A DNA stretch of 64,000 nt. Source: Clostridia bacterium. Its GTDB lineage: Bacteria > Bacillota > Clostridia > Christensenellales > CAG-314. The position numbers and the translations under genes are program-made. The stretch covers positions 85,177 through 149,176 of the forward strand of contig JAQVMT010000002.1 in assembly GCA_028703495.1 (NCBI GenBank). Direction: 5' to 3'. Positions 3,517 through 56,398 of this stretch are shown one piece after another. The notes beneath the pieces are model-generated. The model made no database searches and was not told the DNA's origin. It saw nothing but the letters and a program-made list of their open reading frames with translations. How positions within the stretch are numbered: the stretch's first letter is position 1; the number at the start of each line of letters is the position of its first letter.

Positions 3517-4230
3517 ATGAAAATACAGGGAAAGAACGCTGTAAGCGAAGCTATAAAAAGCGGTACTACGATAGACGTAGTATTTGCCGAAAAGGGTACC
3601 GCGCATCCGATTATTGCGATGTGCAGGGAAAAAGGCATTAAACTTAAGTTCGTTGACAAGTATTATTTGGATAAAGAAAGCTTTGACGGAAAGCATCAGG
3701 GCTTTATTGCGCACATATCCGAATTTGAGTATTCGGAGGTTGAGGATATTCTTGCGGTTGCCGAGGAAAGACAGGAGCCTCATTTTATCGTAATCCTAGA
3801 CGGCATTCTGGATCCGCACAATCTCGGAAGTATACTTCGGGTATGCGAATGTGCGGGTGTTCATGGAGTGATTATCGGAAAGGATCGCGCTGTTCCCGTT
3901 AACGAAACGGTCATAAAGACGTCTGCCGGGGCGACGAGCTATATGAAGGTTGCACGCGTTGTTAACATCAATAGGGTTATTAAGGAGCTGCAGCAAAAGA
4001 ACATTTGGGTTTACTGCGCGGACATGGACGGAGAGGATCTGTTTAAATCCGACTTGCGCGGTAATTTAGCTTTGGTAATCGGCGGTGAAGGTAATGGCGT
4101 TGGAAAGCTGATAAAGGACAGTTGCGACAAGGTAGTAAGTATAGGACTACACGGCAAGGTGGATTCGTTGAACGCGTCTGTTGCTTGCGGAGTCGTTGTA
4201 TACGAAGCTTTGCGCCAAAGAAAGTTGTAA
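3517..4230 (+). CDS. rlmB: 23S rRNA (guanosine-2'-O)-methyltransferase, SpoU/TrmH family (RlmB/YacO-like)
   Basis: SpoU-type motifs are present (ILDGILDPHNLGSILRVCECAGV, LVIGGEGNGV, SLNASVACGVVVYE). It has the conserved position between mrnC and sigH. Confidence 0.8.
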   Translation: MKIQGKNAVSEAIKSGTTIDVVFAEKGTAHPIIAMCREKGIKLKFVDKYYLDKESFDGKHQGFIAHISEFEYSEVEDILAVAEERQEPHFIVILDGILDPHNLGSILRVCECAGVHGVIIGKDRAVPVNETVIKTSAGATSYMKVARVVNINRVIKELQQKNIWVYCADMDGEDLFKSDLRGNLALVIGGEGNGVGKLIKDSCDKVVSIGLHGKVDSLNASVACGVVVYEALRQRKL

Positions 4231-4384
4231 TATTCCGCGGTTTGAGTTGCGTTTTAATTGCTTTGTCAAGATCTCAAGAATTAAAACCATGGTGTGATTA
4301 CGCTCAAAGAGGCTTCTAATATAACAAACTTGAAACAGATAAGTTATGTCAATGAATGTTTTAGACCGTCAGTCGGAGGTGTTT

Positions 4385-4945
4385 ATGATAAGTCGAGAGC
4401 TTTTGGAAAAAGCTAAGCAAAACGACGAAAGGGCTGTCGAGGAAGTCTTCGAATGTTTCAAGCCGTTGTTCAGAAAACTTACGCGAAGTTTTCATATATT
4501 GGGAAGTGACGACGATGATGTGATTCAGGAAGGAATGCTGGGGCTTTACCTTGCGATAACTTCTTACAACTTTGAGGAAACTGCTACGTTCGAGACTTTC
4601 GCAATAAAATGCATATACAGAAAGATATACAACGCCATAAGCAAAGCCAACTCCCAAAAAAACAGACCAATCAATAACTCGGTCAACATCGACGAAATAA
4701 GTGACCTAGTTTTTACGGGAAACGATCCGATGGACTTAATTTTGAAAAAAGAGCTTCAAGAACGGTTTTCCGACATTTTAGAGTTTAAGCTTAGCAAGAT
4801 CGAGAGTAACGTTACAAAGCTTTTTATGGAGGGCTACACCTATCAGGAAATTGCAGACAAATTGAATACCGAAGTTAAAGCCGTTGATAATGCTCTGTTT
4901 AGATCAAGAAAAAAGATACAAAAGAATCTAAGCGATACTTTGTAA
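4385..4945 (+). CDS. sigH: RNA polymerase sigma factor, SigH-like (sigma-70 family)
   Basis: DDDDVIQEGMLGLYLAITSYNFEETATFETFAIKCIYRKIYNAI and the C-terminal YQEIADKLNTEVKAVDNALFRSRKKI align by eye with B. subtilis SigH regions 2 and 4. Start at the ATG 4 nt after GGAGGT. Synteny is mrnC-rlmB-sigH. Confidence 0.75.
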   Translation: MISRELLEKAKQNDERAVEEVFECFKPLFRKLTRSFHILGSDDDDVIQEGMLGLYLAITSYNFEETATFETFAIKCIYRKIYNAISKANSQKNRPINNSVNIDEISDLVFTGNDPMDLILKKELQERFSDILEFKLSKIESNVTKLFMEGYTYQEIADKLNTEVKAVDNALFRSRKKIQKNLSDTL

Positions 4946-5176
4946 TTAATCTCGTGTTATTAATATATCGGAGTCGAACGTCGCAATATAAGGGTGCTAG
5001 AAGTATGGAATGTTTGCACATTGAGATTTAAAATGTATTTGTTCATGCTAAGGGAAAAGCAGTAGAGGGTTGATTCAAAGTCGATAAGAATTGAATTTTT
5101 AGCCCTGCTTTAGCGTATTCATGCAAAAAATGAATATGAGCAGAGTCGATTATAATCGAATTTCAAAGGGGGATAA

Positions 5177-6697
5177 ATGGCGTATCTTGCATTATATAGA
5201 AAATATCGTCCCAAAAGTTTTGACGAAGTGATCGGACAGGAGCATATAACGAGAACGCTCGTTAATCAAATCCGCAACGGAAGAATCGGACACGCATATC
5301 TGTTCACTGGAACGAGAGGAATCGGAAAAACCACAGTCGCGAGGATATTGGCGAGGGCGGTCAACTGTCAAAGCCCTGACGGAAAGCTTCCTTGCGGAAG
5401 GTGCGAGGTATGTAAAACGCTCGAAGCGGGAAATATCGATATTGTGGAGTTGGACGGCGCAAGCAACAACCGAGTGGACGAGGTTAGGGAGTTGAGAGAA
5501 AGCGTTGCCTATCCCGCAACCATTGGTAAATACAAGGTGTATATTATCGATGAGGTGCATATGCTTACGGGGAGTGCCTTTAACGCTCTTTTAAAAACGG
5601 TTGAGGAACCGCCCGAGTATGTGATTTTCATTCTTTGCACGACCGAAGCGCATAAGATACCGCAGACAATTTTAAGCCGCTGTATGAGGTTCGACTTTAG
5701 GCTTGTCAGCGTGGCGGACTTGGAAAAACTGATTGTCAAGCTGTTAGCGGATGTAGGAAAAGAAGCAGATGACACTGCTGTTCACCTGATTGCGTCGCTT
5801 GCAGAAGGAAGTGTAAGGGATGCGCTCAGCAATTTGGATAGGTGCCTACTCATCAGCGAGGGCAGATTAAAGTACGAGGATGCATTGCTTGCTTTGGGAG
5901 CTACAGATATTCGCACAATTTACGGTTTGGGTAGGGCAATATTGACCGGCGATGCCGTGAAGGTAGTAAAGGAAGCCGAGGAACTCAAAAGTATCGGTAA
6001 GAATTTCTCCACGCTTTCTAGAGAACTTGCCGCCTATTTCAGAAATTTGGCGTTAGTTCATTTAGATAAAAACGCAAATATAGTTTTGCAGTTGCCTTCG
6101 GAGCATTTCTCGATTTTACAGGAAGATGCTAAGCTCGCCGATACTCAAAAGAATCTAGATTGCGCCGAGCTCTTCGGAAAGGCGGAAGGAGAGCTGCGGT
6201 ACAGCATTTCTCCGTCGGTGACATTTGAAACGGCGGCGTTGAAGGCGTGTCTCGGTTATTCGCAGGCTGACGTCTTCTCGTTGGAAAAGCGCGTTAAGTA
6301 TTTGGAAAAGGCGGTCGGAGAAGGCGTAAAAAAAAACTTGATTGAAGCCGACCGGCCACAGACAATAGCCACGAAGGATGATCGCGAGGTCGAATACGAT
6401 GCGGTTTCGCTTTGGAGTAAGGTATTAAAGAGCGTTAAACAAGATGGCGGATTGATTTACGAAACGCTTAAAGAGATCAATGATGTAAGCTTTATTCGCG
6501 GAGTATTGACGCTAAGTTGTGGTCAAGTCGCATATACTATGCTCTCGACCGGCGATAATAATACAAGATTGATCAATGCGGTTAACGAGTATACCAAAGC
6601 AAAAGTTGAACTTGTTTGCGTTTCAGCCGTAGACAAGAAAGCGGACAGTATGAAAAAACTTGAAGTGTTGGCTGAAGGAAAGCTAACGGTTATTTAG
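5177..6697 (+). CDS. dnaX: DNA polymerase III subunit gamma/tau
   Basis: ALYRKYRPKSFDEVIGQEHI, Walker A GTRGIGKTT, the zinc module CQSPDGKLPCGRCEVC, DEVHML and SRC motifs. An A9 tract lies at 6328-6336 (see findings). Confidence 0.92.
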   Translation: MAYLALYRKYRPKSFDEVIGQEHITRTLVNQIRNGRIGHAYLFTGTRGIGKTTVARILARAVNCQSPDGKLPCGRCEVCKTLEAGNIDIVELDGASNNRVDEVRELRESVAYPATIGKYKVYIIDEVHMLTGSAFNALLKTVEEPPEYVIFILCTTEAHKIPQTILSRCMRFDFRLVSVADLEKLIVKLLADVGKEADDTAVHLIASLAEGSVRDALSNLDRCLLISEGRLKYEDALLALGATDIRTIYGLGRAILTGDAVKVVKEAEELKSIGKNFSTLSRELAAYFRNLALVHLDKNANIVLQLPSEHFSILQEDAKLADTQKNLDCAELFGKAEGELRYSISPSVTFETAALKACLGYSQADVFSLEKRVKYLEKAVGEGVKKNLIEADRPQTIATKDDREVEYDAVSLWSKVLKSVKQDGGLIYETLKEINDVSFIRGVLTLSCGQVAYTMLSTGDNNTRLINAVNEYTKAKVELVCVSAVDKKADSMKKLEVLAEGKLTVI

Positions 6698-6962
6698 TAG
6701 TAATACTGCGTGTTCGGTGGAAACTTGAAAGAATATAGCGACACACCATGCAACTGCATGCGCCTCTCTCTTAAGTCACGTACGAGAGAGTACGCTTCTG
6801 TCGTTCATCGGCAACGGCTGTCGCAATCTGCACCACTCTCTTCTTTCAAGAATTTTTATAAGGAATTAATACATATAAGCTTGAACATGTTCCTTACGAA
6901 GCCGATGGCAGGGATATAATGAATAATTTGTTACAATATAAACGGATTTTAGAGGTGAAATA

Positions 6963-7283
6963 ATGGCAAAAAATAATTTTGGCGGACCTAATATGAGTCA
7001 GTTGATGAAGCAGGCTACTCAAATGCAACAAAAGCTTGAAGAGGCTCAAAAGGAATTGAGCGAGATTGAGTGCGAGGGTGAGTCTGGCAACGGACTAGTA
7101 GTTGTAACTTTGAGCGGAAATAAAGAATTTCTGCGCATTAAAATTAGTCCTGATGCTCTTGACAAGGATGATGTCGAAATGCTTGAGGATTTGATTATCG
7201 CTGCATACAACGACGCTTCGGCGTGTGCGGATGAGGTCCAAGAGGAAATAATGCCAAAGGGTATGGGCAACGGGCTGTTTTAG
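6963..7283 (+). CDS. ybaB: Nucleoid-associated protein YbaB/EbfC
   Basis: 106 aa. MSQLMKQATQMQQKLEEAQKEL...GLVVVTLSGNKEFLRIKISPD is typical of the YbaB family. It is downstream of dnaX. Confidence 0.9.
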   Translation: MAKNNFGGPNMSQLMKQATQMQQKLEEAQKELSEIECEGESGNGLVVVTLSGNKEFLRIKISPDALDKDDVEMLEDLIIAAYNDASACADEVQEEIMPKGMGNGLF

Positions 7284-7504
7284 ACAAATCCTCCTTTTCT
7301 GCGCCATATTTTATTCCAAAGCATACTGAACCAGAAATAGCAGCGGAGAAGACTAGAATTAAATTCATCGTGTGATGCGGGCTATGTGTATCTTGCCTTG
7401 GTCGTGTATGTCAATATACGCTCCCTTCGGTCAAAGAGCTACCAGTTGCCCGCTTAGCGCGACTTTTTCCCAAGTAGTTTTTGTGACGGAGGTCATATAT
7501 TAAT

Positions 7505-11869: not shown

Positions 11870-13015
11870 CTACACGCAATATTTCTTAACGATTTGCTTG
11901 AGCGCGACGGTTAGTCTTTTCACGTAAGCAGGCGGTGTAAGCCCGCTTAGCGAAATTCGGACAAGCCCTGTTTCTGCCGTTCCCAAATGCCTGTGAATCA
12001 ATGGAGCGCAATGTAATCCGCCGCGTACCTCGATGTCGTATTTTTTGTCGAGTATGTCCGCCACTACGTTGCTGTCTAAATTTCCTATGCTTATGCTGAC
12101 GATACCCGAGCGATTCATAGGAACGCTTTTTAATACTATGTCGGGCATAGTATTTATAAATTCCAACAAATAAGCTTGTATTTGCAGAATATTTTGCGAA
12201 AGCACCTTCCGATATGTAAGCCACCATTTTAAAGATTCGCCTAAGGCGACAATACCCGAGATATTGAGAGTGCCGCTCTCCAGTGCTTCGGGCAGTTCTT
12301 TTGGCTGGGTAAGCAGTTGGCTTTGGGTACCGGTTCCACCGAAGATAATCGGATTTACAGCGACTCCTTTTCTAACTAAAAGACAACCCAAGCCCGTAAG
12401 CCCCATAAGTCCTTTATGGGCGGGGATAGCCAAGAGGTCGACGTTGGCTTCGTCCATAGCCACAGGAAGGTGACCTGCGCTTTGTGCGGCATCTACGATG
12501 AAGCGAAGATTGTGTTCTTTGGTTATTTTTCCTATGCTTTCAATATCGTTTACCGCGCCCGTAACGTTGCTAACGTGTGTTAATACGACGATCGTGGTTT
12601 GTGGCAATATTGCTTGTTCCACGCTTTTTGGGTTAATTGAACCGTTTTCCTCGGGTTCCAACAGGGTCAAAGTGATGGTTCCTTTTTTTTCGGCTTCGCA
12701 TAGAGGTCGAAGCACGGAATTATGCTCCATAACCGAGCTTATGACGTGGCAGTCTTGAGTGATACTGCCGCTTATCGCGTAATTAAGTGCGTTTGTACAA
12801 CCTCCTGTAAAAACAGTAGTTCCTTCTGAAAGTCCCATACTGTCTGAAATGAGCTTTCGAATGTCGGCAATCAAGCAATTAAGACCGACTGCTCTTTCAT
12901 ATCCCCCTCGCGAGCTGTTGACGTTGACATACCTATGCAGATTAAACAACCCGTCGAATACCGCTTGCGGCTTAATACCGCTTGTTGCGGCGTTATCCAA
13001 ATATATTTTTTCCAT
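11870..13015 (-). CDS. Class V aminotransferase-fold PLP enzyme, SufS/CsdA-type cysteine desulfurase or selenocysteine lyase family
   Basis: IYLDNAATS N-terminus, PLP-lysine context AIPAHKGLMG, and C-terminal active-site Cys context RGGLHCAP (group II desulfurases). Start at ATG 13015, preceded by AAGGAG. Confidence 0.8.
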   Translation of the reverse strand: MEKIYLDNAATSGIKPQAVFDGLFNLHRYVNVNSSRGGYERAVGLNCLIADIRKLISDSMGLSEGTTVFTGGCTNALNYAISGSITQDCHVISSVMEHNSVLRPLCEAEKKGTITLTLLEPEENGSINPKSVEQAILPQTTIVVLTHVSNVTGAVNDIESIGKITKEHNLRFIVDAAQSAGHLPVAMDEANVDLLAIPAHKGLMGLTGLGCLLVRKGVAVNPIIFGGTGTQSQLLTQPKELPEALESGTLNISGIVALGESLKWWLTYRKVLSQNILQIQAYLLEFINTMPDIVLKSVPMNRSGIVSISIGNLDSNVVADILDKKYDIEVRGGLHCAPLIHRHLGTAETGLVRISLSGLTPPAYVKRLTVALKQIVKKYCV

Positions 13016-21308: not shown

Positions 21309-21335
21309 AGAGTAACTTCGGTTACTCTTTTTTTT
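21309..21335 (+). terminator. Rho-independent terminator after rplS
   Basis: Stem AGAGTAAC / GTTACTCT with a TTCG loop, followed by a T-run (21329-21335). Confidence 0.8.
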
Positions 21336-55748: not shown

Positions 55749-56398
55749 TTCTCATTAAAAATATTCTCGTCAAAAGGAATCAAAATATCTCCCTTTTGAT
55801 TTATATCCGCTCTACCATTGGTAATTTCGGTTATGTCGCATATTAGGGAGGACGATAATGCAGTCGGAAGCCTAAACCTAATGGTTATTGCAGAGTCGAA
55901 AACCGTTTCGATAATTTCCGCTCTTTTACCAATAAGCGATTGAACGGCTTTATACTGCGAGTAGTCGCAGATTACTTCGACTTGAGCGCAATCTCTGTAA
56001 CGCAAAACGGGAGCCTTGCTCAATACACTTGCGCACGCTCCCGAATAAGCCCTGACAAGTCCGCCTGCACCGAGTTTGATCCCGCCGAAGTAACGCGTCA
56101 CGACTACAACTAGGTTAGTCAATTCTTTCTTTAGTATAACGTCTAATATGGGTTTGCCTGCGGTTTGAGAGGGCTCTCCGTCGTCTGAAAACTTAACAAG
56201 TGCGCCTATAGCGTAGGCATAACAGTTATGCGTTGCATCGTAGTTTTTTTTACGTATGCTATCTATAAATGCAGTCGCATCTTCCACCGTGTCAACACCG
56301 CAAGCGTAACCGATAAAACGTGATTTATTGATAACGTTCTCCGCGCTGACTATCTCTCTCCCGATGGTAACAAACTCTTTCACCGTAGCCTCTTTCAA
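55745..56398 (-). CDS. yigZ: YigZ / IMPACT-family protein (UPF0029)
   Basis: KSRFIGYA, ATHNCYAY, DDGEPSQTAGKPIL and VVVTRYFGGIKLGAGGLVRAY are canonical for the family. Confidence 0.85.
   Translation of the reverse strand: MKEATVKEFVTIGREIVSAENVINKSRFIGYACGVDTVEDATAFIDSIRKKNYDATHNCYAYAIGALVKFSDDGEPSQTAGKPILDVILKKELTNLVVVVTRYFGGIKLGAGGLVRAYSGACASVLSKAPVLRYRDCAQVEVICDYSQYKAVQSLIGKRAEIIETVFDSAITIRFRLPTALSSSLICDITEITNGRADINQKGDILIPFDENIFNEK

Follow-up and report, generated by a model that had tools for sequence, protein, structure and literature searches.

A nine-adenine run at the gamma/tau junction of dnaX in an uncultured Clostridium as a candidate site of transcriptional slippage

The window that we analysed is a 64-kb stretch of a Clostridia bacterium genome (assembly GCA_028703495.1, contig JAQVMT010000002.1, positions 85,177 to 149,176), and the gene considered here is dnaX, from which other bacteria make a short (gamma) as well as a long (tau) clamp-loader protein. 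According to the list of open reading frames (ORFs), the coding sequence lies at 5177..6697 on the plus strand of the window, and its zero frame encodes a full-length, tau-type DnaX of 506 amino acids (aa), identical to MDD4290889.1. This protein scores 460 bits against NCBIfam NF004046 (curated cutoff 400), gives a full-length match to the N-terminal equivalog profile TIGR02397 (dnaX_nterm) at aa 3-357, and matches the Pfam domains DNA_pol3_delta2, AAA, lid and gamma3, with domain III at aa 240-359. Moreover, its aa 1-298 align with E. coli gamma/tau structures, for example 1jr3 and 1xxi. From TIGR02397, Pfam and the structure alignment, the clamp-loader core (domains I-III), which would be common to both of the products proposed below, was placed at 5183..6253 on the plus strand, ending at about aa 357-373. 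Further downstream, a tau-specific C-terminal domain occupies 6392..6691 of the same strand, where it was matched in the zero frame (E=1e-22) by a family profile derived from the C-terminal region of alignment A1; its window coordinates correspond to positions 4216-4515 of the Logan assembly contig L001, plus 2176. In the bacteria where it has been studied, the C-terminal domain of tau tethers the replicative polymerase and the helicase.

Between these two parts the gene carries nine consecutive A's, the proposed slippage site, at 6328..6336 on the plus strand, where codons 384-387 read GTA AAA AAA AAC and the bases that follow the run are CTTGATTGA. The A9 starts 27 codons past the end of the N-terminal equivalog match and before the tau-specific domain, and the zero frame beyond it is open for 119 codons, running into that domain. 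In simulated transcripts, the +1 frame is closed by a TGA at 6339..6341 (+), which ends messages with A8 (...VKKT, 387 aa) and A11 (...VKKKT, 388 aa), and the -1 frame is closed by a TGA at 6343..6345 (+), which ends messages with A10 or the product of ribosomes shifted by -1 (...VKKKLD, 389 aa) as well as messages with A7 (...VKKLD, 388 aa). A simulated A9 message gives the 506-aa tau, and an A12 message gives 507 aa, that is, tau with one extra Lys. The run and both out-of-frame stops belong to a lineage-specific linker segment, VKKNLIEAD (6326..6352, +), delimited by codon alignment with the dnaX loci L083, L118 and L119. The region of the run holds the in-frame heptamers A_AAA_AAA and A_AAA_AAC, and the A_AAA_AAG of E. 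coli is absent; a GGAG tetramer resembling a Shine-Dalgarno (SD) motif stands at 6317..6320 (+), 7 nucleotides (nt) before the A9. Contig L001 has the same A9, and since it is 100% identical to the window over 4668 nt, it lends the run no independent support.

An earlier note on this DNA, made without database searches, had singled out this run as a candidate tau/gamma recoding site just past the clamp-loader core. Direct reading and a script confirmed its position and codons, and TIGR02397, Pfam and the C-terminal profile place it at the junction of domain III and the tau domain, as had been supposed. The stops within 1-3 codons in both shifted frames also stood, as did the rest of the description, and the short products measure 387-389 aa.

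On balance, we lean towards the reading that the window A9 serves to divide dnaX expression between gamma and tau, in the manner of Thermus thermophilus. As RNA polymerase passes through the nine A's, the growing RNA would slip on its template, producing dnaX mRNAs with A-runs of variable length. Messages with A9 (or A12) would be translated into full-length tau, with both the core and the C-terminal tethering domain, and messages with A8, A10 or A11 would be read in the other two frames, which end in 1-3 codons, and would give gamma-like proteins of 387-389 aa that keep domains I-III and lose the tethering domain. Ribosomal -1 slippage on A_AAA_AAA or A_AAA_AAC may add to the gamma-like product. 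We infer the slippage in this organism, its efficiency and the use of the short product; that the truncated protein is made at an appreciable level is very likely, and that it has been selected for we hold to be likely, with less assurance.

Runs of this kind are rare in the DNA around the gene. A script found the A9 to be the sole homopolymer of at least nine bases in the window, and it is the sole A or T run of that length in the 52.7 kb covered by window ORFs of at least 200 aa. The next-longest homopolymers of the window are four T8 runs, at 1495-1502, 12683-12690, 21328-21335 and 56244-56251. As the usage of Lys codons is balanced (AAA:AAG = 659:594), the A9 is not a by-product of codon bias. 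A -1 stop within 3 codons combined with a +1 stop within 2 follows 2.65% of random codons in the long ORFs of the window (P 0.0265), and at the looser limit of 10 codons both shifted frames close at 27% of positions, the window sequence having 41% GC.

Similar runs recur at the same place in dnaX of other bacteria. Species-representative (GTDB) genomes were scanned with the DnaX alignment, which gave at least 80 loci, an unbiased sample and not a census, and the junction was taken to comprise the 15 codons up to the end of the N-terminal profile and the 50 codons beyond it. In 15.5 kb of junction, A-runs of at least nine were found 6 times; the N-terminal portion of dnaX had none in 86 kb, and runs of at least nine, counting A or T, were found 4 times in the remaining 215 kb of locus sequence. 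With 0.12 junction runs expected and 6 observed, this is a roughly 50-fold enrichment (Poisson P 3.7e-9, calculated post hoc). The carriers are L005 and L048, both Clostridia, L058 (Gemmata), L072 (Fibrobacter) and L077 (Desulfobacteraceae), and the in-frame A9 or A10 runs lie at L048:2636 and 2729, L072:2655, L077:2680 and L058:2724, all at the same dnaX junction.

Four independent in-frame cases, the window included, span three codon phases, and each has both other frames shut within 1-3 codons. The window A9 has its first A at codon position 3 and stops in both frames 1-2 codons past the run (chance 0.06, taken for each gene as that of both frames closing within 4 codons); the A9 of L048 begins at codon position 2 with stops 1-3 codons past the run (chance 0.23), the A10 of L072 at codon position 3 with stops after 1-2 codons (chance 0.006), and the A10 of L077 at codon position 1 with stops after 1-3 codons (chance 0.09). 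The in-frame run of L058 has a looser closure, at 7-9 codons. Closure of both frames would be needed only where transcripts of several lengths are present, with one fewer, one more or two more A's. We consider the runs of L048, L072, L077 and L058 to be candidates for the Thermus type, in phyla without such a report in the literature searched. In Trichlorobacter, an A10 (L081:1820-1829) lies far downstream of this site, with about 38 codons of the ORF still to come and a stop 2 codons on in the -1 frame.

In a large neighbouring clade of gut/rumen Clostridia the A9 has the opposite role, and slipping on it is obligatory for making tau. Among the matches listed from the sampled genomes, L005 has the closest N-terminal sequence (53%), and it reads GAAGACGTAAAAAAAAACTGA at its junction: the zero frame ends ...GEDVKKN-stop, and the tau C-terminal domain is found in the -1 frame (profile E=4.9e-16). 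BLASTP of this -1 frame against the window C-terminus gave a weak match (E=0.11), and a profile hidden Markov model was used instead. Protein P0089, from locus L082, has the layout of L005 with other flanking bases and another stop codon, and again a tau domain in the -1 frame (E=9.4e-14). A search with P0089 returned 120 clusters at 71-100% identity, about 115 of which measure 366-380 aa and end x-x-[V/A/T/S/I/L]-K-K-N, at times with a few further residues behind it. The residue that precedes KK varies freely and all the options fit an NNA codon; as far as these sequences can tell, such a C-terminal pattern marks selection that acts on the nucleotide run rather than on the peptide.

Metagenome loci of this clade were fetched through the tau C-terminal domain alone, so that the retrieval was blind to the run. 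In each of the 31 loci that span the junction, 29 of them retrieved blindly and the other two being L005 and L082, the run has exactly nine A's and the tau domain is in the -1 frame, with the run at 2601-2609 in L005, at 2074-2082 in L082 and at about 1550 in most of the loci L085-L117. The bases around the run vary (GT, GC, TC or TT before it; CTGA, CTAA, CTCCAAATGA, CTTAATTTGA or CGAAATTTGA after it), and so does the length of the short linker that precedes it. Of the frames without tau, the zero frame closes after 0-2 codons and the other after 1-10, and the tau frame remains open for 77-119 codons, or 111-119 in all loci except L092. What is conserved in the clade is, on this comparison, all nine A's and nothing else. 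Single 90% clusters turn up on dozens of contigs that were assembled independently (for example P0156 on 53 and P0167 on 48), which excludes assembly error for the clade A9. One further contig, L120, has an A10 at 1392-1401 with tau in frame (P0204, 480 aa, ...DAKKKLNK...) at a low coverage of about 2.4x, and this could reflect a natural switch of roles by one base or else an error in homopolymer length; a single-nucleotide role reversal of dnaX was anticipated in PMC5009743. Because tau, which is essential in the bacteria studied, can be made in this clade only by slipping on the A9, the run must be, judging by these genes, an efficient slip site for the transcription or the translation apparatus of Clostridia related to the window organism. 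Hundreds of Clostridia assemblies carry an A9 device in dnaX.

Several points weigh against a partitioning role for the window A9, and the closest relatives of the window are the main one. The nearest of them, L083/P0004, L118/P0006 and L119/P0005, share the SpoU-sigma-dnaX-ybaB synteny with the window at 48-50% identity and have no A-run at the junction, and the A9 and both stops sit in a linker insertion of about 8-11 codons that is private to the window. A search with the full-length protein found no relative above about 50-55% identity in the protein database, and screening the metagenomes with the C-terminal domain specific to this lineage turned up no relative either. With the nearest relatives lacking the run and no closer ones at hand, selection on the window A9 is not demonstrable. 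In a neighbour-joining (NJ) tree of the N-terminal 365 residues, calculated without bootstrap values, the window groups with P0004/L083, P0005/L119, P0006/L118, P0007 and P0011, outside the clade with the reversed A9. In addition, the enrichment was calculated post hoc, the sequences of the clade share a phylogenetic history, transcriptional and ribosomal slippage would yield identical proteins that sequence alone cannot separate, and some AT-rich bacteria may suppress slippage on 9A (Baranov et al., PMC1088944). The recoding site proposed in the earlier note is thus backed by its architecture, its junction position, its recurrence elsewhere and the obligatory use of the run in the neighbouring clade; as to the conservation in close relatives that the note had suggested checking, the nearest ones found, at 48-50% identity, lack the run, and its stimulatory GGAG, discussed below, is not supported.

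The local sequence of L005 is nearly identical to that of the window, and inheritance of the window A9 from the reversed-A9 clade was considered. It is disfavoured by the NJ placement with relatives that lack the run, and also by about 17 extra residues before the window run and by the private insertion; with an NJ tree that has no bootstrap values, this is a leaning and not a proof. If functional, the window A9 is most likely an independent gain. The metagenome-assembled genome (MAG) of L002 (JAMPEJ010000001.1), labelled 'Corallococcus sp.', carries a Clostridia-type dnaX that groups with the relatives of the window and has the same type of C-terminal domain, and this MAG is probably mislabelled or contaminated.

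The absence of the run from the nearest relatives, and its place in a lineage-specific insertion of a poorly conserved linker, are what one would expect if it were incidental, that is, if Lys-Lys-Asn had come to be written AAA AAA AAC after GTA in a fast-evolving, indel-prone linker and any short products were tolerated noise. Out-of-frame stops are also fairly common, as the closure of both frames within 10 codons at more than a quarter of positions illustrates. However, the long coding sequences of the window have no other run of nine or more, which fits the selection against 9A and 9T runs described in coding regions of many bacteria (Baranov et al., PMC1088944), and the sole exception sits at the very junction where such runs are enriched across bacteria. 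The strict two-frame closure has a low chance of arising at random, and an A9 kept without selection would cost an essential replication gene a considerable part of its transcripts. We regard an incidental run as unlikely.

A programmed -1 ribosomal frameshift like that of E. coli could also be considered, in which ribosomes would shift on A_AAA_AAA or A_AAA_AAC of a uniform mRNA and stop at the TGA at 6343-6345 to give a 389-aa gamma. The window offers two in-frame heptamers of the form X_XXY_YYZ, a -1 stop after 2-3 codons and the GGAG 7 nt upstream, and E. coli dnaX combines an upstream SD and a downstream stem-loop with A_AAA_AAG. The earlier note had compared this GGAG with the stimulatory SD of E. 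coli. The tetramer is part of the Gly-Glu codons GGA GAA, and no stem-loop accompanies it. Among 26 distinct clade junctions, just 4 have an SD-like tetramer in the 25 nt that precede the A9 and 22 have none, so that the window GGAG is probably incidental. The best SD spacing for -1 stimulation is reportedly about 10-14 nt, a value attributed to Larsen et al. 1994. Folding gave no sign of a stimulatory structure in the window, either for 153 nt around the site (z=-0.2 against shuffled sequences) or for the 64 nt downstream of the A9 (z=+0.41, no stem-loop), and RNAalifold on 22 clade junctions returned 0 pairs. A search for tRNA genes, aimed at the tRNA-Lys repertoire and hence at AAA/AAG shiftiness, found none in the 64-kb window. 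Moreover, A_AAA_AAG is far more prone to shifting in E. coli than either A_AAA_AAA or A_AAA_AAC (PMC5009743), and for a -1 frameshift seven A's and one closed frame would suffice, yet nine A's are invariant in the 31 clade loci and both frames are shut in the four in-frame cases. A ribosomal frameshift as the main mechanism is in our view improbable. Because no structure or SD is conserved, all nine A's are kept and both frames are closed, the sequences favour slippage of the polymerase, and we favour it as the main mechanism.

It is very improbable that the A9 is an assembly or homopolymer artefact, or a phase-variable replication-slippage tract with a true A8 or A10 or a mixed population: the sequence does come from a MAG, homopolymers are error-prone in some chemistries, and L120 shows an A10 where its relatives have A9, but exactly nine A's keep the tau C-terminal domain of the window in frame, the NCBI MAG and the Logan assembly agree, though probably from the same population, and on/off switching is implausible for the essential tau of dnaX.

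Other related Clostridia arrange dnaX differently. Around 35 protein clusters among the relatives of L014, a Clostridia MAG with the same synteny, end in Pro-stop. In L014 (2630-2660) the end of the gamma ORF reads GGAGagtgCCC TAA and the tau domain is in the +1 frame (E=3e-13); in L121 (1835-1865), whose protein P0295 is present on 24 contigs, it reads GGAGagtatCCC TAA, with tau likewise in the +1 frame (E=4e-12); and in L125 (1835-1865) it reads GGTGaatCCC TAA (+1 frame, E=4e-9). The cassette common to these three consists of GGAG or GGTG, 3-5 nt, and CCC TAA at the end of the gamma ORF. The +1 frame of L125 is open from no more than two codons ahead of CCC, which leaves CCC_TAA as the one place for a shift, read as CCT AAN. 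The arrangement is similar to the +1 frameshift cassette of RF2, in which a stop follows a shift-prone P-site codon and an SD-like motif stands a few nt before them, and we consider these loci to be candidates for a conserved, RF2-like programmed +1 frameshift in dnaX. No description of such a cassette in dnaX was found in the literature searched, and Antonov et al. (PMC3711429) reported dnaX genes of the -1 type only. In L123 and L124 (1844-1860) and in L126 and L127 (1847-1865), the gamma-like ORF ends ...SKLK-TAG or ...SKINK-TAA, and the C-terminal domain is encoded apart, by an ORF of the +1 or -1 frame that is blocked by stops upstream and begins with its own GTG or ATG 8-12 nt past the stop; here dnaX appears to be split into two cistrons, with no recoding. 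Together, the architectures found among the relatives of L014 add weight to the view that a gamma-like product is in wide demand across this group.

Downstream of the window dnaX, the spacer to ybaB (6698-6962) measures 265 nt, compared with 13-101 nt in the nearest relatives L118, L119 and L083, and it contains a 69-aa ORF (6710-6919) with no family match. Rfam gave no match in this spacer or in the region 4800-7400 of the window, and the scan for promoters and terminators found nothing exceeding the shuffled background around dnaX and nothing convincing above background in the spacer.

Reviews state that most bacteria make tau only, and that B. subtilis, S. aureus and S. pyogenes make full-length DnaX alone; a full-text literature search found no report of a poly-A recoding site in Clostridial dnaX. 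The remark in the earlier note that such a site would be unusual for a Firmicute is thus correct with respect to the literature on these tau-only species and is contradicted by the sequence data, in which hundreds of Clostridia assemblies carry an A9 device in dnaX. The window organism, an uncultured gut-type Clostridium, probably makes both gamma and tau. This would be a known mechanism in a new host, and a credible addition to the known recoding class, notable as a Firmicute. The window A9 and the clade assemblies would imply that short and long DnaX are both wanted in some replisomes of a phylum whose models use PolC, and that slippage of the polymerase is a routine way of setting their ratio. 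Genes of the clade are at present called truncated or split (a 370-aa 'gamma/tau' and orphan ORFs of 91-123 aa), and such calls cause dnaX to be mis-described in gut-MAG annotation and in essential-gene and completeness analyses.

We hypothesise, tentatively and with slightly more doubt than belief, that the uncultured gut and rumen Clostridia of an entire radiation (Christensenellales-like MAGs with the SpoU-sigma-dnaX-ybaB order) need a gamma-like subunit and have arrived at it several times over, through a variety of decoding devices. Such devices would be the in-frame A9 of the window and L048, the invariant A9 with tau in the -1 frame, the RF2-like +1 cassette and the split into two cistrons. 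If this is true, the tau-only view of Gram-positive replisomes, taken from Firmicute models, would be wrong for a large part of the phylum, and the role of gamma, long a matter of debate, could then be tested in a second and very different replisome. Gamma has been studied mainly in E. coli, where even its presence in the replisome was disputed for years.

Several known systems can be compared with the window gene. In Caulobacter crescentus gamma arises by proteolysis of tau (PMC5009743); as proposed for the window, a short and a long DnaX come from one gene, but the Caulobacter route is post-translational and uses no slippery sequence. In E. coli, a -1 ribosomal frameshift occurs on A_AAA_AAG, stimulated by an SD that stands about 10 nt before it and by a stem-loop that follows (PMC5009743, PMC3711429). 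The gene is the same, gamma is tau minus its C-terminal domains, the site lies past domain III, the slippery heptamer is A-rich and a -1 stop comes right after the shift; the window differs in having the full A9, a closed +1 frame, no stem-loop and no conserved SD.

A 'reversed' dnaX with two ORFs is known from Chlorobi, Bacteroidetes and Verrucomicrobia, with a poly-A run, mostly A10, and tau in the -1 frame (Antonov et al. 2013, PMC3711429). The window shares with them a poly-A run at the gamma/tau junction and has its tau in frame, and so it is not of this type. The neighbouring Clostridia clade (L005, L082 and L085-L117) does follow the reversed logic, with gamma in the zero frame and tau reached by a -1 shift. 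It differs from the genes of Antonov et al. in having A9 and not A10, and its phylum is absent from the nine species aligned in their Fig. S3 and the three Chlorobi named in the text.

In T. thermophilus, RNA polymerase slips on nine A's of dnaX, and run lengths of 9 or 9+3n give tau and other lengths give gamma, at about 50% (Larsen et al. 2000, as described in PMC1088944 and PMC5009743). Thermus-type sites that give a truncated product are hard to validate by comparison (Baranov et al., PMC1088944). The base after the run is C in the window and G in Thermus (PMC3711429, Fig. S3), one host belongs to Deinococcus-Thermus and the other is a Clostridium whose Firmicute model relatives use PolC, and the function is proven in Thermus and deduced from sequence in the window. 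In both genes, an A9 on the sense strand lies past the clamp-loader core, tau is one continuous ORF and stops are close at hand in both alternative frames, so that run lengths that do not differ from nine by a multiple of three would lead to gamma.

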